From an uncultured Candidatus Saccharibacteria bacterium (lineage in GTDB: Bacteria; Patescibacteriota; Saccharimonadia; Saccharimonadales; JAGQNJ01): a DNA stretch of 64,000 bases. The stretch spans positions 197,053-261,052 of the forward strand of contig CAZPAW010000001.1 of the NCBI GenBank assembly GCA_964584895.1, read 5' to 3'. The notes under the pieces were generated by a model. It saw nothing but the letters and a program-made list of their open reading frames with translations. It did not search any database and was not told where the DNA came from. A program made the position numbers and the translations under genes. How positions within the stretch are numbered: position 1 is the first letter of the stretch; the number at the start of each line of letters is the position of its first letter. Shown here piece after piece: positions 5,857-49,566 of this stretch.

Positions 5857-6813
5857 ATGAATAATATTTGGGATGAGATGAAGAAGCCAATATTTGTGTT
5901 GGCGCCAATGGATGATGTAACTGATACGGTTTTTCGTCAAATGATTGCTAGCTTAGCGCCGCCAGATTTGTACTTTTCAGAGTTTGTGAATGTCGACGGG
6001 TTACAGAGTGTAGGTCGAGGTAAGTTGATACATAAACTGCAGTACACAAAAAAAGAGAAGCCAATCATTGCTCAGTTATGGGGCAAAAACCCGAATAATT
6101 ATTACAAAACGACTAAACAGTTAATCGAGATGGGTTTTGATGGCGTTGATATTAATATGGGATGTCCAGTCAAGACCGTGGTTAAGGATGGCTGTTGCGT
6201 AGCACTTGTTGATAATCGCATTTTAGCTAACGAGATAATAAGCCAGACTCAAAAAGCTGCCAATGGTAAGATACCGGTAAGTGTAAAAACGCGTATTGGT
6301 AATAGAACTGTTGATATGAGCTGGATAGAGTTTTTGTTATCACATAATCTAGATGCGCTAACTGTTCATGGTCGAACCGCCAAGCAGATGTCCAAGGTGC
6401 CGGCAGACTGGGACATAATAGGGCAGGCGAGGGAAATGCGCGATCGACTCTCTCCTGCTACAAAAATTATCGGTAACGGCGATGTTATGTCGCGATCGCA
6501 TGGATTAGAGTTAGCAAAAAAACACAAGCTGGATGGAATTATGATTGGTCGAGGTATCTTTCATGATCCGTTTGTCTTTGCTAATTCGTTGTCCAGCGAA
6601 TCACCTTGGCAAGGATATTCAAAATCTCAAAAGATTGAGCTTTATAAAAAACACGTCCAACTATTTGCTAAAACTTGGAAAAAGGGCGAACGACGATCGA
6701 TTGGCCTTAACAAGTTTTGTAAGATATATATTAATGGCTTTGATGGTGCCAAAGAATTGCGGGTTGATTTAATGGACGCGAAAAATACTGAAGAGTTACT
6801 AGAGAAGCTCTAG
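5857..6813 (+). CDS. dus: tRNA-dihydrouridine synthase
   Basis: 'LAPMDDVTDTVFRQM', 'DINMGCPVKTV' (catalytic Cys), 'VSVKTRIG'. TIM-barrel Dus family. Confidence 0.85.
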   Translation: MNNIWDEMKKPIFVLAPMDDVTDTVFRQMIASLAPPDLYFSEFVNVDGLQSVGRGKLIHKLQYTKKEKPIIAQLWGKNPNNYYKTTKQLIEMGFDGVDINMGCPVKTVVKDGCCVALVDNRILANEIISQTQKAANGKIPVSVKTRIGNRTVDMSWIEFLLSHNLDALTVHGRTAKQMSKVPADWDIIGQAREMRDRLSPATKIIGNGDVMSRSHGLELAKKHKLDGIMIGRGIFHDPFVFANSLSSESPWQGYSKSQKIELYKKHVQLFAKTWKKGERRSIGLNKFCKIYINGFDGAKELRVDLMDAKNTEELLEKL

Positions 6814-25597: not shown

Positions 25598-25678
25598 CTT
25601 GATTTGATGAAGTTGTGACTGGGTCGCCAGAGGTGACTAGATCACTATTAACATTTTTTAACAAAATTCATCTTTGGG

Positions 25679-25754
25679 GGGGCTGTAGCTCAGGGGTTAG
25701 AGCAGTCGGCTCATAACCGATTGGTCGCAGGTTCAAATCCTGCCAGCCCCACCA
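25679..25754 (+). tRNA. tRNA with CAT anticodon, elongator-type (Met, or Ile2 if lysidine-modified); CCA encoded
   Basis: Cloverleaf read directly: acceptor GGGGCTG/CAGCCCC, D-arm GCTC-AGGGGTTA-GAGC, anticodon loop CTCATAA, T-arm GCAGG-TTCAAAT-CCTGC, then A-CCA. C11:G24 is the elongator type. Confidence 0.8.
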
Positions 25755-25786
25755 TAGCTGAGTTTTGTTTTAACCGATTGGTCGAA

Positions 25787-42789: not shown

Positions 42790-43437
42790 TTATAGAAATT
42801 TTATAGAGTTAACAATACTTTCAAATTCTTGAGTAAGATTTGACGCATCAAAATCATATTCATTGTTTGTAGTATTGTTGCTGTAACTTTCTCTGAAGCT
42901 AAGTGTCACCAAATCCTTGCCATTTAATACCCTATACTCAATATCCTTATATTTTTCGGCCTCACTAGGGCCAACAAAATCGGTCGTATGCTTTAGCGCC
43001 TTATATCCATCTATTGTCACTTTTTCGTAGGTATTAAATTGGTCTTTATCGATATCATCGATTTCTTTTTCTATTGTTGTGTCTACATCAGTAAAACCAT
43101 AGATGAACACTTCGGCTTTTTGATTATCTTTATTGCGAAGTGTTATGGGTTGCGTATCTTTGGTCCAATCAGGAGTTGGCTTAGTAGGTCCATCGGTGTC
43201 TGGTTCTTCGTATGGTATTTTTGACCAAGTATTTGGGTATTCGACAGAAAAAGTTTTCGAAGAGTCTGTTATTTCTGATTTAGTAGAGCTTGGTGTCGTA
43301 TTAGTAGAATTATATGAATTATCACTATCACTCCTATTATTTACGACATACCACCCAACACCTGCAATTAATCCAACAATAACAAATATTAGTAATCCCT
43401 CTACTACACTAAAGCCTTTGGTGTTCAACTTTTTCAT
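42790..43437 (-). CDS. type IV pilin-like protein
   Basis: Class III signal 'MKKLNTKG|FSVVEGLLIFVIVGLIAGVGWYVV' followed by a 180-aa Ser/Thr/Asn-rich domain. Confidence 0.65.
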   Translation of the reverse strand: MKKLNTKGFSVVEGLLIFVIVGLIAGVGWYVVNNRSDSDNSYNSTNTTPSSTKSEITDSSKTFSVEYPNTWSKIPYEEPDTDGPTKPTPDWTKDTQPITLRNKDNQKAEVFIYGFTDVDTTIEKEIDDIDKDQFNTYEKVTIDGYKALKHTTDFVGPSEAEKYKDIEYRVLNGKDLVTLSFRESYSNNTTNNEYDFDASNLTQEFESIVNSIKFL

Positions 43438-43444
43438 TTCTTAG

Positions 43445-43600
43445 TTCCTGCTTATGCTTATTAAATCAAGATTAATTATATACCTATTTCAATATAAAAG
43501 AGCTCCTTTTGTAGAGACCAAAGTGCTAATGTTTACACAGGTGTGTTCGTCCGCTATACAACGGATGGAGCTTAGTGCTAGGAGAGTTGACTAGAGGTGG
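43445..43600 (-). promoter_or_regulatory. copy A of a ~155-nt conserved leader/intergenic element (includes RBS and 5'UTR of the downstream minus-strand gene, plus a covarying hairpin)
   Basis: Aligns with copy B (44139..44281) at ~75% over ~155 nt, including 'CATAAGCAGGA' directly before the ATG. Hairpin TCCGC-N7-GCGGA (A/B) versus CTCG-N8-CGAG (C) shows a compensatory change. Confidence 0.5.
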
Positions 43601-43614
43601 AACAGATTATTTCG

Positions 43615-44121
43615 TCACTCTATTGAATTTTCTTGAATTTTACCTTTTGAATCTTCACACTCAGGTTCAGCAATCTTATTAATATTATATTTCTCTAGCT
43701 GTTGACAGAGAGGATTTTCTCCGCTTCCGCTATACTCAGTCGGCGGTATCAATGTCCAGTCGCCATTATCCTGTTTTACTGCAACAATAGTAACTTCTTC
43801 AATTAAATTATCTGAGCATCCATATGACATCCTAGCATATCTATCGTCAACATTAGCTTGTACTGCGTATAGTGCTACTCCGTCGGGTGTGTCTGTGCCT
43901 CGATATTGTTTACAGTCATCGTCAGAGTTCTTTTCAAGATAAGATTCTAGTCCTGACGGTATAACAACACTATCATCGACTGCCCAAACCTTTACATTCT
44001 CACTATCTTTATTTAAAAGGTTATTAGTTAGATAACCCAATGCGAAAGCTGTAACTACTATTGCTAAAAGTATTAAATAATTTTTTGACCGCATTGTATT
44101 CTTCTTTTTTGGTTTTGGCAT
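43615..44121 (-). CDS. hypothetical secreted/membrane-anchored protein
   Basis: 168 aa, basic N-terminus plus TM, 4 Cys in the C-terminal domain. Confidence 0.5.
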   Translation of the reverse strand: MPKPKKKNTMRSKNYLILLAIVVTAFALGYLTNNLLNKDSENVKVWAVDDSVVIPSGLESYLEKNSDDDCKQYRGTDTPDGVALYAVQANVDDRYARMSYGCSDNLIEEVTIVAVKQDNGDWTLIPPTEYSGSGENPLCQQLEKYNINKIAEPECEDSKGKIQENSIE

Positions 44122-44138
44122 TTTTTTGGTCCTGCTTA

Positions 44139-44281
44139 TGTTATTAAATTAAGTATAAGTATACTCCTATTTTTCATAAAAAACTTATATTTTTACAGAG
44201 GCCAAAGTACTAATGGTAAACAGGTGTATTCGTCCGCCATACAGCGGATGGAGCACTATGCTAGAAGAATTGACTAGGTGG
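44139..44281 (-). promoter_or_regulatory. copy B of the conserved leader/intergenic element
   Basis: Alignment to copy A is given in that entry. Sits upstream of an unrelated gene (43615..44121). Confidence 0.5.
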
Positions 44282-44287
44282 AAAGAA

Positions 44288-44857: not shown

Positions 44858-45595
44858 TCATAAATACTTTGTAATTAATTTCTCTAGTGATTCTTCTACG
44901 GCTTTTATTGCTTCTGGATAAAGCCTGTAATCGTGTGTGCAATCAATCTCAAGAAAAATCTTTGGTTCAGATAATTCATCAAAGATTTCTTTAACACGAC
45001 TAGACGGCACAAATTTGTCCTTTGTTGCATACACCAATAGTTTTGCACCCTTAAAGTTTTTCAAAGCTTGTATGGGGTCATGTTTGGCACCGTCTTCAAA
45101 GTATTTCATAGGAAGACTAAACTTGCGTTGTTCTTTGGTTCTTTTGTTTCCTGGTGGAATGTCTCGTGATTCTTGTAACGTATTGTTTTTGATTTTTTCT
45201 AGTTCAGGCGCTGACGGCTTGCCGTAAGCTGCATTAATAAGTGCCAATCCTATAACAGAAGGGTTGTCTGAAGCTAGCATTGCGGTTGCACCACCACGAC
45301 TATGCCCTAATAGTAGAGTAGGGCGATTACCTAGCAAATCTATAAGCTCATTGATTGCATTAATGTATGTAGTAGTTGTGTAGTTTTCTAATTCGCCTAG
45401 GCTATCCCAAGTTCCTGGTGCATCAATTGCGATAGCGTAATAACCGTGCTTAGCAAAGAAGTCAAGGTGACTAACAAAGTTTGCATAATCTTTCGTATCA
45501 AGACGGCCTGGCATCAATATGGCGACCTTGGTCGCGTCAGTGTCTCCAGCTTCGTTGGCTGCGATTGTAAAGTTCTTGGTTTTAATCAGTTTCAT
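44858..45595 (-). CDS. alpha/beta hydrolase (dienelactone-hydrolase/esterase-like)
   Basis: Nucleophile elbow 'GHSRGG', 'ILMPGRLD' oxyanion region, 245 aa. Confidence 0.7.
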   Translation of the reverse strand: MKLIKTKNFTIAANEAGDTDATKVAILMPGRLDTKDYANFVSHLDFFAKHGYYAIAIDAPGTWDSLGELENYTTTTYINAINELIDLLGNRPTLLLGHSRGGATAMLASDNPSVIGLALINAAYGKPSAPELEKIKNNTLQESRDIPPGNKRTKEQRKFSLPMKYFEDGAKHDPIQALKNFKGAKLLVYATKDKFVPSSRVKEIFDELSEPKIFLEIDCTHDYRLYPEAIKAVEESLEKLITKYL

Positions 45596-45657
45596 ATTTC
45601 AATAATAACAGAGAGACTAAAAAGACCCCAGCTTCCTAGGGTCATAGTGCTTATGCT

Positions 45658-45732
45658 TGGTTGCGGGACCAGGACTCGAACCTGGGACCTCGTGGTTATG
45701 AGCCACGCGAGCTGCCGCTGCTCCATCCCGCA
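45658..45732 (-). tRNA. tRNA-CAT with initiator-like features (candidate tRNA-fMet)
   Basis: Read on the minus strand: TGCGGGA-TG-GAGC-AGCGGCA-GCTC-G-CGTGG-CTCATAA-CCACG-AGGTC-CCAGG-TTCGAGT-CCTGG-TCCCGCA-A-CCA. Features: weak U1-A72 pair, A11:U24, two G:C pairs closing the anticodon loop. Confidence 0.75.
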
Positions 45733-45831
45733 TATCGTCTGGATGACGATCAAAAACTATCCAGAGCAGTTCAAATACTAACATTACAGATAACAGATGT
45801 CAATAAGCATGCTATGAAATAAAAAAAGTAT

Positions 45832-45860
45832 TTGACAAATTAAAGTTCTTATGTATAATG
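45832..45860 (+). promoter_or_regulatory. near-consensus sigma70 promoter TTGACA, 17-nt spacer, TATAAT in a gene-poor region
   Basis: Exact hexamers read directly, followed by an A-rich leader and an AAGGAG RBS. Confidence 0.6.
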
Positions 45861-45931
45861 TTAAGTACAGTTTTAAATTAAAACAAAACAAAAAATTAAC
45901 AAACTAACAAAACAAAAAAGGAGTCCGAAAA

Positions 45932-46009
45932 ATGGGCGATCTTACTTATGAAGTTGTCGAGACAGACAACGTAGCAATAAGAGAAGTAGACAGCATACTT
46001 TTCAGTTAA
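45932..46009 (+). CDS. candidate 25-aa small ORF (MGDLTYEVVETDNVAIREVDSILFS) behind the strong promoter and a consensus RBS
   Basis: AAGGAG 9 nt upstream of the ATG. Acidic peptide. No homology assessable by eye. Confidence 0.35.
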   Translation: MGDLTYEVVETDNVAIREVDSILFS

Positions 46010-46088
46010 TTCATCAAGAGCTAAAGCTCTAAAAAACGATGGGCTAGCCGGTGCAAAAAATGTACCGGCTATTTTTGGTAACAACAAT

Positions 46089-46181
46089 ATGTTGTCAGGC
46101 TGGAGTTTGCCTTGTTGTTTTATCAGCACTATTATCGGAATTTGGGTTGGTTATAAGGTTGGACAATATATATACGACTAA
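46089..46181 (+). CDS. candidate 30-aa hydrophobic peptide (MLSGWSLPCCFISTIIGIWVGYKVGQYIYD), type-I-toxin-like
   Basis: Single predicted TM with an aromatic/charged C-terminus. The frame is open from 45990. No obvious SD. Confidence 0.25.
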   Translation: MLSGWSLPCCFISTIIGIWVGYKVGQYIYD

Positions 46182-46281
46182 ATATCTTTTCTATTGCGAG
46201 CTAAAGCTCGCGCTTTAAATACTTTTTACCTGAAAAAGTAGTAGCAAAAGCAGGCAAGCGGCTGAAAGAACAAGATGTTAA

Positions 46282-46389
46282 TTTTAGTAATATGTATCGT
46301 GCCTGCGGAACGTAAGCGATCCGATTCATTAATTCTAGAGTAAGGAATCGGATTAGTCCTCGGCATTGACCCGATACATATTACTAAAA
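46282..46389. repeat. nested perfect inverted repeats: outer 18 bp (TTTTAGTAATATGTATCG / CGATACATATTACTAAAA) and inner 9 bp (ATCCGATTC / GAATCGGAT) with symmetric 18-nt internal loops
   Basis: Read directly. The 108-nt element could form a long stem-loop in RNA or a cruciform in DNA. Confidence 0.6.
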
Positions 46390-46514
46390 TTAAATCTGTT
46401 TTTCAGAGCTTGGAAACTAAGCGATAATTTACTCATCAATTTCTGGTCATTGTCCAGAGAATAATAATGAAACATTACGTTGATTTGGGTATCTTTTAAC
46501 AGACTAGAATTAGC

Positions 46515-46949
46515 CTAATCAGTTTTGAGCCAGTTTTCGAGTGATTTTAAGTCTGGAAAAATCTCATCAAAAATACCATACAGAGTTTCTGTCTTTTCTG
46601 GTATGCCCAATGCATAACATTTTTTGCCCATGCCATATGCTGCACCAGCCTCTATGTGTCCAGAGATCCCCGCTGGTAAAACTAATAGGAAGTTATCGCT
46701 ATCTCGTTGAGCCTGCATATCATTTTCGAAAATATGTCTTATGAAATCATCGTCTTTGGGTAGCGATTCGAGCGTTTGCATAATCGACTCAATGCTAGCA
46801 TCTTGTTTGAACTCAACTTTCGATCCCTTATACAAGTTCTCAATGAAACAATAGGCAACTTTGTTGTGAGCTCTTACAGAATCAAGGGCTTTTTTTACTT
46901 CTGGATAATTTCGCCAACGTCCAACTATGAAGAAATCGTACTTTGCCAT
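46515..46949 (-). CDS. nucleoside 2-deoxyribosyltransferase-like protein (Rossmann-like)
   Basis: 'FLLVLPAGISGHIEAGAAYGMGKKCYAL' resembles the 'DsGTafEiGyAyalGKPv' motif of PF05014-type proteins. Confidence 0.55.
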   Translation of the reverse strand: MAKYDFFIVGRWRNYPEVKKALDSVRAHNKVAYCFIENLYKGSKVEFKQDASIESIMQTLESLPKDDDFIRHIFENDMQAQRDSDNFLLVLPAGISGHIEAGAAYGMGKKCYALGIPEKTETLYGIFDEIFPDLKSLENWLKTD

Positions 46950-47318
46950 GGAATAATTATATCAATTTAGTTGATGAAGGCTCTAACTTACTAATTGGTC
47001 AACCTAACTCATATGGATATGGAATGACTTTGTTGGGTATCTGACTGATCCTAAACAGATGTTGTGAAAAAAAGGTGACCTTGGACGCGAGGACTGTTTG
47101 AGATATGAATTTGCTTAGTAGCATATTCATATAGAGTTCCACAGAGAGCTAACTTTATACTAACAGATATATAAAGACTGTGTAGTAAGTCCGAGCTTTT
47201 GGTTTACTTTGGGCGGTTAAAAGTAATAAATTAATAGTTTTTAATAAAATAGATATGCCTACATTGAATCTAGTAACTTGGGTTGAGATGTGGTATATTT
47301 ACCCCTGTCGGTAACTAT

Positions 47319-48105: not shown

Positions 48106-48680
48106 CCGAGTCCAAATCTGTCGATACACCGCCCAATGAAGGCGGTATTTTTTTGTCAAAAGAAGAATATGAAAAAGTAAGCGAGCTAGTCGCCGAATTC
48201 CCAAGAATAGCAGACAAAGGATTACAAAAACGGCAGGCCTATCCTTTTATTAATTTGTATCTGATCATGTGGATTCTGTCGCGAGAAAAACGATCTAATA
48301 ATCAAGATGGCTTTGATCGTGAGCCCTATCGTGATTTTTGTAGGAATTGGATGCAACAAATGAGAGAAGAGGCCCTATATCCAATCGATGTTTCTGGAAT
48401 CGTAAGAAGAGTGTCATCCATCTTCCAAAACAGACTACTATACTCCAGTAGCGTCGATGACGCCCCAGTAATTTTTGATCTTGCGGGCAAAGAGTACATA
48501 GCCTTATGCCACCCATCGCTTAAATCATTGTATCTATGCACAGAGGAAGAAGGTACTGGTAGAATCGTTAGTTTTACGGAAGCACAGTTGTCGGCTGAGC
48601 ATGATCGATCAGCACGCTACGCTAGTACCGAGGACCACATAGCTTTTTTGAGCGCCTGTGTTTTATCTGTTGAATTCTGA
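48102..48680 (+). CDS. hypothetical protein, second gene of the cassette
   Basis: 192-aa ORF, no recognisable motif. Translationally coupled to 47446..48105. Confidence 0.5.
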   Translation: MTESKSVDTPPNEGGIFLSKEEYEKVSELVAEFPRIADKGLQKRQAYPFINLYLIMWILSREKRSNNQDGFDREPYRDFCRNWMQQMREEALYPIDVSGIVRRVSSIFQNRLLYSSSVDDAPVIFDLAGKEYIALCHPSLKSLYLCTEEEGTGRIVSFTEAQLSAEHDRSARYASTEDHIAFLSACVLSVEF

Positions 48681-48693
48681 TACCATATCGATA

Positions 48694-49566
48694 ATGAAAA
48701 TCGTAATTAAACCAGGAAAATATATAGTTGCGGTTTCTGGTGGCGTGGATTCAATTGTTTTACTTGATTTGTTATCAAAAAACAAAGATCTTGAATTGGT
48801 AGTTGCACATTTTGATCATGGTATAAGACGAGAGTCTGAAAAAGACAAAAATTTTGTCGTTGAATTAGCTGGCCGATATGGGCTACCAATCCGAATAGGA
48901 GAGGGGAGGCTTGGTAGCGGTACTAGTGAAGAGCGTGCGCGGAGGACTAGATATGACTTCTTGCATGAAGTTATGAAAAGTGAAGGCGCCGATGCAATCA
49001 TAACTGCGCATCATCAAGATGACTTGGTTGAAACCGTAATATTCAATATCTTGCGCGGGACAGGTCGAAAAGGCATCACTTCGTTATCGAATAATAAAAA
49101 TATCCAAAGACCACTACTTGGTATAAGTAAAAATGAAATTATTAAATACGCCAAAACAAACAATCTTGCTTGGGTTGTAGATTCTACTAATTACGATACG
49201 CAATATACACGTAACTGGATCAGACATATTCTAATTCCAAAAATGGATGACGAGAAAAAAGATCAAATTTTAATGCTATATCAATCACATCAACCAATTA
49301 ATTCCGAGGTGGATGAGGCAATCAAGCGAATTATTGATTTTGAACAAGATCTAAAAAAATCAACCCTGTTGAACTTACCATATTCAATCAGTTGTGAATT
49401 GGTTGCGGGTTGGCTACGAGATAAGGGTTTGGCAGAATTTGACAAAAAAACAATAGACAGAATAGTGCGAGGCGTAAAGACTTTGCCGACAGGAAAAACT
49501 ATAGATATATATGATAATAATCAAGTTATTATTGGCGATAAAAAACTAGAAATAGTAAAAAGGTAA
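48694..49566 (+). CDS. tilS: tRNA(Ile)-lysidine synthetase
   Basis: PP-loop 'VAVSGGVDSIVLLDLL', 'DHGIRRESEKD'. Short TilS form (~290 aa). Start set at the MKIVIKPG Met; the ORF is open from 48658. Confidence 0.8.
   Translation: MKIVIKPGKYIVAVSGGVDSIVLLDLLSKNKDLELVVAHFDHGIRRESEKDKNFVVELAGRYGLPIRIGEGRLGSGTSEERARRTRYDFLHEVMKSEGADAIITAHHQDDLVETVIFNILRGTGRKGITSLSNNKNIQRPLLGISKNEIIKYAKTNNLAWVVDSTNYDTQYTRNWIRHILIPKMDDEKKDQILMLYQSHQPINSEVDEAIKRIIDFEQDLKKSTLLNLPYSISCELVAGWLRDKGLAEFDKKTIDRIVRGVKTLPTGKTIDIYDNNQVIIGDKKLEIVKR

Follow-up and report, generated by a model that had tools for sequence, protein, structure and literature searches.

This report concerns a short region of a 64-kb stretch of DNA (the window, whose numbering is used for all positions) from a Saccharimonadales genome (Saccharibacteria, Candidate Phyla Radiation, CPR). 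The region is placed between two tRNA(CAU) genes. We consider it probable that it is a mosaic of a gene for a 25-residue acidic micro-protein (p25), the remnant of a decayed gene for a 57-residue membrane protein (p57) and a palindromic DNA element, set in a stretch that is prone to rearrangement. An earlier note had read the same DNA as a type I toxin-antitoxin or small RNA locus around a 30-residue hydrophobic peptide (p30). As a fallback it had suggested that the palindrome could be a recombination site or an element resembling a miniature inverted-repeat transposable element (MITE), and this is the reading that comparison with relatives favours.

The window was compared with contigs of relatives, L100, L102, L107 and L108. 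A tandem-duplicated p25 query matched a sole protein, P0124, which is p25 with an in-frame leader extension and lies on contig L100. Searching 1.84 billion representatives by phmmer with p30 as query found the 57-residue protein P0126, on contigs L102 to L106, which form one group. Contigs L107 to L110 form another; they represent a third species, in two strains, and were reached via a 219-residue neighbour protein. Logan contigs of the window's own species are 100% identical across the region and therefore uninformative for comparison. L100 is syntenic with the window. Its order is initiator tRNA (minus strand), promoter, A-rich leader, 25-codon open reading frame (ORF), hairpin and p30 homologue; a non-coding stretch of about 560 nt separates these from tRNA-Met (plus strand), beyond which lie genes for a 213-residue protein, tilS, ftsH and murJ. 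In the window, tilS and ftsH stand just downstream of the region. The order in L102 to L106 is initiator tRNA (minus strand), 25-codon ORF, NUDIX gene, 57-residue protein gene, tRNA-Met (plus strand), OTCase gene, 90-residue protein gene, tilS and ftsH. The micro-ORFs of the region are absent from a collection of 15 billion proteins, and thus no pipeline calls them.

On the evidence of codon usage and conservation, p25 (MGDLTYEVVETDNVAIREVDSILFS; 45932-46009, plus strand) is a genuine conserved micro-protein gene and belongs to a new, narrowly distributed family. The ORF is exactly 25 codons long in all four Saccharimonadales species (window, L100, L107 and L102). Its setting is also common to the four: it diverges from the initiator tRNA and has a 16-nt promoter spacer and an A-rich leader. 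The sequence is MGDLTYEIVETDNVAIRSVDSILFS in L100 and MLELTYEATATSDERILEIDEVIFD in L102, and in L107 it ends ...LFN. Between the window and L107 there are three synonymous codon changes and one non-synonymous change, with four of the five nucleotide changes at third positions. Codon usage was scored with a model trained on the window's long ORFs and compared with real-gene chunks of similar length and with 233 spurious short ORFs. On this scale p25 has a log-likelihood of 0.518 bits per codon, above 84% of the real-gene chunks and matched by one of the spurious ORFs. It heads an operon in L102 and stands alone in the window and in L107.

The expression signals are conserved along with the ORF. 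The unit opens with a perfect sigma-70 consensus promoter at 45832-45859 (plus strand; TTGACA-16-TATAAT). Both boxes had been read exactly in the earlier note; the spacer, given there as 17 nt, is 16 nt, and the promoter ends at 45859 instead of 45860. This consensus is found once in the 64 kb, and at least one occurrence was also found in 9 of 100 shuffles. The promoter is identical in L100 (5649-5676) and L107 and reads TTGCAA-16-TATAAT in L102. It sits back to back with a promoter-like site of the initiator-type tRNA(CAU) gene (45775-45803, minus strand; TTGACA-17-TAGTAT with TG), an arrangement also seen in L100 and L102. The tRNA gene itself (45658-45732, minus strand; initiator-like, with A11:U24) has its own divergent promoter and its own terminator. 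The p25 leader (45866-45931, plus strand) is A/C-rich and mostly unstructured, and ends with the Shine-Dalgarno sequence AAGGAG (45918-45923), spaced 8 nt from the ATG. It is near-identical in L100 and L107, and in L102 it is different yet A-rich. The A-rich leader, the ribosome-binding site and the 25-residue ORF of the earlier note are hence all present, and they form an expression unit that is conserved in relatives. The combination AAGGAG-spacer-ATG is rare in the window, with three sites; by our estimate chance would give about as many, and it is therefore no evidence by itself. From the conserved frame and signals we infer that p25 is transcribed and translated; its product would be an expressed and functional acidic peptide of the cytosol.

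Downstream of p25 lies a terminator-like hairpin followed by T5 (46045-46076, plus strand; hairpin 46045-46071), which the first reading had overlooked. It has 11 pairs, six of them G-C. The G+C-rich stem and the U tract behind it are those of an intrinsic terminator, and they are kept in L100 and L107. The hairpin falls within the former p57 frame and there codes for LAGAKNVPAIFG. L100 keeps the stem and has an in-frame difference of 3 nt in the loop. The L107 loop has one nucleotide less than that of the window, which shifts the frame; the stem and T-run are kept and p57 is gone. The hairpin probably terminates the p25 transcript where p57 is dead and would attenuate p57 expression where p57 is intact.

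The second component is the p57 remnant, a 5′-truncated gene at 46038-46181 (plus strand) recognised by homology to the 57-residue protein. It holds the p30 ORF (46089-46181), and the frame is open from 45990 over 64 codons, both as first described; no ATG, GTG or TTG occurs between 45990 and 46089. Full-length p57 is a two-helix glycine-zipper membrane protein that is intact in L100 and L102, where it belongs to ordinary operons. The L100 homologue, read from a TTG start (MKILIYIFASIGGLAGAYVPAIFGNNNMLSGWSLFCGFVGTIIGIWVGYKVGQYIED), aligns with P0126 along all 57 residues at 61% identity. Upstream of the p30 methionine the window's frame still reads ...GLAGAKNVPAIFGNNN, which can be aligned to P0126 and to the L100 ORF. 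The window lacks 16 nt of p57, and the start and first helix have been replaced, a state common to L107, where the remainder of the gene has been lost. Within p30 the changes G10C, G13S and E29Y are specific to the window and fall at sites identical in L100 and L102; there is also a proline at position 8. The codon score of p30 is 0.015 bits per codon, below 97% of the real-gene chunks and reached by 28% of the spurious ORFs. Alignment thus reveals the homology of p30 to p57 and the loss of the 5′ end. Since that end has been lost together with the start codon, and conserved glycines have been substituted, p30 is most likely a pseudogene remnant of p57.

In Pfam, p57 matches Gly-zipper_YMGG (PF13441) and Gly-zipper_Omp (PF13488) at E = 0.004-0.03; the best scores, 17.1 bits (cut-off 28.9) and 16.4 bits (cut-off 25), are under the gathering thresholds. 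NCBIfam gave weak YiaD glycine-zipper matches only. Like the small membrane proteins of these two Pfam families, p57 has two short hydrophobic helices with GxxxG-type spacing, whereas the window copy has the second helix only, with its glycines substituted.

These observations bear on three other explanations of this half of the region. That it is a type I toxin-antitoxin locus, with p30 as a membrane toxin controlled by an antisense or overlapping small RNA, is scarcely credible. The peptide does have one predicted hydrophobic helix and a charged or aromatic tail, it is similar to Fst, Ldr, TisB and Hok in its length and single hydrophobic helix, the region folds more stably than its shuffles (z = -7.2), and weak antisense promoter-like sites are present. 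However, the p30 ATG has neither a Shine-Dalgarno sequence nor a leaderless -10 box upstream, and it lacks the codon usage of a gene. Among the spurious ORFs, 12% have a 17-residue stretch that is just as hydrophobic, so the hydrophobicity of p30 is no better than chance. The toxin-like shape stressed in the earlier note is that of the C-terminal half of a protein from ordinary operons. Unlike the type I toxins, p30 is a fragment of a longer conserved protein with no translation signals of its own and no antisense RNA, and it matches no Pfam family even at E ≤ 10, and hence no Pfam toxin family. The antisense ORF of 77 codons noted at 45896-46129 is indeed present in the window, but stop codons interrupt it in L100 and L107. 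The minus-strand promoter-like sites reach only 9/12, and none is listed at the matching L100 positions. Rfam 15 at gathering thresholds found three tRNAs only in the window, and a scan of 45550-46600 at E ≤ 10 gave only chance-level hits besides tRNA; the search that the earlier note had proposed, for transfer-messenger RNA, RNase P, signal recognition particle and 6S RNAs, therefore returned no known non-coding RNA but tRNA. The comparisons largely refute the toxin-antitoxin idea, which looks like an ordinary misreading of a gene remnant. We also think it very unlikely that p30 is no pseudogene but a still functional, shortened single-helix membrane peptide started from a conserved internal methionine. 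Consistent with such a role are the long open frame, the identity of the ATG with a methionine conserved in all full-length homologues, and the pattern of change relative to L100 (seven synonymous and five non-synonymous codon changes, with one change at second positions). Yet p30 lacks a ribosome-binding site or -10 box, lies directly downstream of the terminator-like hairpin, has lost two glycine-zipper glycines and gained a proline in its helix, and is wholly missing in the sister lineage L107; its identity to L100 is 83%, against 91% for p25. Highly improbable, finally, is that the promoter drives a non-coding small RNA of about 210 nt (45866-46076) in which the 25-codon ORF is incidental. 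A stable-RNA-like consensus promoter and a terminator do bound a short transcript, and this folds better than shuffles (z = -5.4), but it matches no Rfam family. The ORF is, moreover, fixed in length in four species, with the peptide motif kept in L102 although the nucleotides have strongly diverged; its substitutions are biased to third positions and its codon usage is gene-like. In L102 it is followed by further genes and no terminator.

The third component is the palindromic element. Copy 1 (46262-46406, plus strand) is the longest inverted repeat in the window. It comprises perfect outer arms of 22 nt (46278-46299 and 46372-46393), core halves at 46301-46311 and 46355-46364, and a perfect inner stem of 9 nt (46319-46327 and 46345-46353), with loops of 19 and 18 nt. 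The earlier note had described a 108-nt element with perfect arms of 18 bp and 9 bp and symmetric 18-nt loops; the nested palindrome and its inner arms stand, the outer arms are longer and the loops are unequal. Each strand reaches a folding energy of -47.3 kcal/mol, with z of -7.3 and -7.55. The motif TTAA, itself palindromic, is found at both ends. A second, degenerate copy had been overlooked. Copy 2 (47034-47177, minus strand; core 47144-47088) matches element A of L100; its outer stem has decayed and its z is -1.4.

Two long hairpins, one per strand, are present at the locus in the window, L100, L107 and L108. We dissected seven distinct copies, about 115-150 nt long, from three species; z is about -7 for copy 1 (W1), L100A and L100B. 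Common to all is an invariant asymmetric core, CTGYGGAAC...AGTCCTCG. In the core helix, GCC (or CGC) is followed by a bulged T, a G, a Y·T mismatch, GGA paired with TCC, a C and GGC (or GCG), which written out is GCC-bulged T-G-[Y·T]-GGAAC ... AGTCC-T-C-GGC. The bulged T and the Y·T mismatch are invariant in 7/7 copies, each of which has 40-44 nt between its core halves. In the alignment of the core helix (A3), 98% of cells pair, and two pairs are altered on both sides. The enclosed inner stem-loops have five unrelated sequences of 9-15 bp and are perfect or have one mismatch or G·T. The outer stems reach about 45 bp in B-type copies; copy 1 has another outer stem, perfect over 22 bp. Neither the sense nor the antisense strand folds better than the other, and about 4% of pairs are G·U. 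T runs follow copy 1 and the A-type copies and are not seen after B-type copies. A relaxed structural descriptor recovered exactly the known copies in 1.1 Mb, with no false positives. Judged by alignment, these copies constitute a small palindromic family whose asymmetric core is invariant and whose stems covary.

The left element is always on the plus strand and the right always on the minus strand, so that the elements form inverted pairs bracketing variable cargo: a deoxyribosyltransferase-like gene, a methyltransferase gene or nothing. In the window, the DNA between them holds a spacer, y, and a gene for a 144-residue protein (minus strand). In L100 it is about 85 nt long. In L107 it holds an S-adenosylmethionine-dependent methyltransferase gene and y, and an inverted repeat of 225 nt, 75% identical, flanks these. 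Elements and cargo are both missing from L102, in which p57 and the tRNA are 47 nt apart. Spacer y (46385-46457, plus strand; 73 nt) is 90% identical to L107 1516-1588, in the same orientation, and holds a small hairpin, CTGGTCATTGTCCAG (CTGGYCATTGKCCAG). It is more identical between the species than the flanking coding DNA. When the reading frame is aligned by hand, all seven differences from L107 would be non-synonymous, and y is therefore not coding.

The positions of the elements also differ between the window and L100. Copy 2, on the right and minus strand in the window, is 83% identical to the left copy A of L100, so that an A-type unit occupies the opposite side and strand; the left core of the window matches the right copy B of L100 in inverted orientation. 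Spacer y keeps its orientation, and more than one event is therefore needed to account for the layouts. Over 1.7 kb, L107 and L108 show 23 differences. The left element accounts for 22 of them, including 15 in its inner stem-loop, with pairing kept, and this clustering points to replacement of the element by, or conversion from, another copy. In sequence comparison, then, a paired inverted arrangement around variable cargo is accompanied by strain-level replacement of one element. We note that short direct repeats of the 3′ ends of the two tRNA(CAU) genes occur at L100 5034-5056 and 6698-6717, L102 1731-1751 and L107 2013-2032, tens to about 1350 nt away from the genes. Such repeats resemble what integration or excision at these tRNAs would leave behind, in keeping with a locus prone to rearrangement.

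We propose that the palindromes are DNA-level foldback or recombination elements. A recombinase or transposase would recognise them in hairpin or cruciform form via the bulged core, and they would promote the insertion, inversion and replacement of cassettes; when transcribed, they would incidentally form strong stem-loops at the ends of transcription units. The equal folding of the two strands speaks for a recombination or mobile element at the DNA level, and we infer recognition as a DNA hairpin or cruciform. The main rival is that the elements act as RNA: long stem-loops at transcription-unit ends, serving as bidirectional terminators, insulators, 3′-end protectors or RNase III sites, with the bulged core as a protein-binding site on the transcript and the variable cargo a coincidence. 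This is possible, if on balance doubtful. Compensatory changes maintain the pairing of the stems, bulge and mismatch are invariant at a constant separation of the core halves, every genome has its left copy just behind the p25 unit and in the same sense, and some copies are followed by T runs. However, an RNA-level role fits less well with the symmetry of the strands and the rarity of G·U pairs, with B-type copies that have no U tract, with inverted pairs around a cargo that turns over, with the whole replacement of one element between near-identical strains, and with an A-type unit that has changed side and strand. A bolder form of the DNA-level proposal, which we hold to be improbable, is that the paired palindromes are the recombination sites of a new system by which Saccharibacteria (CPR) capture, invert or exchange gene cassettes. 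Folded into single-stranded hairpins, the sites would be read via the invariant bulged core, like attC, IS200/IS605 and REP, and the recombinase would be encoded elsewhere in the genome. If true, such a system would explain the differing cargo, the swapped positions of the elements and their wholesale replacement between near-identical strains.

Several findings weigh against the mosaic with a mobile DNA element. In the 64-kb window and in 1.1 Mb of sequence the elements were found at this locus alone, and none turned up in IMG/VR and JGI metagenomes with the patterns tried. No transposase or recombinase, HUH transposases included, is among the window ORFs scanned, and no clear target-site duplication was seen at the elements. 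The outer stems are alike in L100B, L107L, L107R and L108L, but those of copy 1 and the A type differ. The elements are carried by three species only, which makes the covariation statistics thin. A single inversion of the whole segment between window and L100 was considered and dropped, given the unchanged orientation of spacer y. For p25, there is no Pfam match and no detectable family or function. The p30 frame stays open and its ATG corresponds to Met28 of the full-length proteins, so residual expression is possible. The further copies of the 18-bp arm that the earlier note had thought worth seeking did not appear: the 18-nt arm has no second site in the window, and arm hits in IMG/VR (5) and JGI metagenomes (21) were discarded as chance single-arm matches. 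Fourteen core-pattern hits in IMG/VR were likewise discarded as G+C-rich chance matches without the architecture of the element.

The cargo gene of the window (46515-46949, minus strand) encodes the 144-residue protein and has a leaderless-type promoter, whose TATAAT box stands 7 nt before the ATG. The slot does not hold this gene in L100, L107 or L102. Matches of the protein to Pfam PF15891 (E = 0.06) and PF05014 (E = 0.15) are sub-threshold and at most hint at similarity to nucleoside 2-deoxyribosyltransferases; a profile search of the PDB gave, at E = 0.36, the entry 4jen, a cytidine monophosphate (CMP) N-glycosidase. Modelling the structure from the single sequence yielded a predicted local distance difference test score (pLDDT) of 47, and the model is unusable. 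Homologues of the gene, from 61 genome loci, are almost all from Saccharimonadales. They often adjoin tRNA genes in neighbourhoods that are otherwise unrelated (L003, L008 and L013, around 6001-6430), which suggests an itinerant accessory gene. Neither the relatives of this gene nor those of an alpha/beta hydrolase share a neighbourhood with the window.

Smaller palindromes accompany the main components. A 12-nt palindrome, GAGCTAAAGCTC, lies at 46018-46029, where the p57 gene start was replaced; it is degenerate in L107 (GAGCTAATACTC) and absent in L100. A second palindrome, GCGAGCTAAAGCTCGC, at 46196-46211 contains the same 12-mer at 46198-46209. Both had been reported before, the first at these positions and the second at 46193-46212, which is slightly too wide. 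The 12-mer has only these two copies in the window, and two copies were reached in 2 of 100 shuffles, which is borderline. A small A/T hairpin, TACTTTTT-ACCTG-AAAAAGTA, at 46219-46242 corresponds to a small hairpin before the left element in L100 (6046-6071) and L107 (356-387).

Leaderless-looking genes are common in the window. A TATAAT box matching at least five of six positions, often with an upstream TG and ending 4-11 nt before the start, precedes 19 of 49 long ORFs, as against 5% of control ATGs (examples are at 46949, 47446, 49613, 53263 and 62597); Shine-Dalgarno-like cores occur upstream of 13 of the 49. Within about 25 kb there are three tRNA(CAU) genes of clearly different sequence (25679, 45658 and 47319), together with tilS (48658-49566). 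They are probably the initiator, elongator Met and Ile2 tRNAs. The initiator-like tRNA(CAU) is otherwise identical among relatives and varies at base 1 (window 45732, minus strand; L100 5435; L102 3178). This base is U in the window, giving a U1-A72 pair, A in L100, and C in another sample of the same species (L062) and in L102, giving the canonical C1xA72 mismatch. The tRNA-Met at 25679-25754 lies within a long-range stem of about 11 bp, and 25651-25780 has the lowest 130-nt folding energy of the window. Elsewhere, the upstream regions, about 170 nt long, of two neighbouring minus-strand genes (43435-43602 and 44119-44283) are direct repeats of 77% identity; the genes encode proteins of 215 and 168 residues with no Pfam match, and a common structure of the repeats is predicted only weakly.

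Two other identities were considered for the region and rejected. An origin of replication (oriC) is not indicated, since there is no enrichment of DnaA boxes window-wide, no box in the region and no turning point in the cumulative GC skew. A retron or defence system, with a structured hairpin beside the deoxyribosyltransferase-like gene, was dismissed as there is no reverse transcriptase nearby and no PADLOC hit. The region gave no match by blastn to phage and plasmid collections. Nothing relevant was found in the literature on leaderless genes, MITEs and small proteins of Saccharibacteria.

There is a lesson here for annotation: a plausible type I toxin appears to be the tail of a decayed gene, while the 25-codon ORF that no pipeline calls is conserved and stands behind the strongest promoter in 64 kb. 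To our knowledge, the micro-proteins of CPR bacteria are essentially unstudied. Strongly promoted and conserved, p25 is a good candidate for study in cultivable Saccharibacteria. Saccharibacteria have very reduced genomes with few recognised mobile elements. Between two tRNA genes, the palindromic pairs delimit a hot spot, small and well defined, at which accessory genes seem to come and go. If a dedicated recombination mechanism does lie behind the pairs, CPR bacteria would have a new route of gene flux.

The elements can be set beside several known classes of repeat. MITEs are non-coding units of about 100-300 bp with fold-back terminal inverted repeats, a description that applies here, and occur in multiple dispersed copies, whereas the window has two copies, both at this locus, and 1.1 Mb of sequence has none elsewhere. 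The ERIC/IRU and Correia (NEMIS) repeats are imperfect palindromes of about 100-150 nt that form long hairpins on either strand; they are extragenic, non-coding and often at gene ends, their stems are kept by compensatory change and their internal segments vary between copies. Each family comprises tens to hundreds of dispersed copies, which have conserved termini and, in many cases, target duplications. Our elements resemble them in size, in forming a hairpin on either strand, in their extragenic non-coding position, in compensatory stems and in a variable interior. They differ in that one inverted pair was seen per genome, at one locus and with differing outer stems, in that no duplication was found, and in that the conserved part is the internal bulged core and not the termini. 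In integrons, attC sites conserve structure over sequence, have extrahelical bases and a variable terminal stem-loop, and recombine as a folded single strand beside small cargo genes that are poor in promoters or have their own; their R″/R′ consensus is RYYYAAC/GTTRRRY and they share one orientation within an array. The elements are alike in conserving structure over sequence, in extrahelical bases (7/7 copies) and in varying inner stem-loops, but their core, CTGYGGAAC / AGTCCTCG, departs from the R″/R′ consensus, they form inverted pairs and no integrase was found. The REP, REPIN and BIME units, which are linked to RAYT (HUH) transposases, are inverted pairs of hairpins in intergenic DNA, where the enzyme acts on single-stranded DNA and reads an imperfect hairpin that has unpaired bases. 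A REP unit measures about 20-40 nt and starts with a conserved GTAG; the units have a high copy number with a RAYT gene alongside and can affect mRNA ends. Inverted pairs of intergenic hairpins with unpaired bases are shared by our elements, which are, however, about 115-150 nt long, with GTAG in the B-type outer arms but not in copy 1. By analogy, it therefore seems that the elements would work most like palindromic MITE-type repeats (ERIC, Correia) or like REPIN/BIME units.

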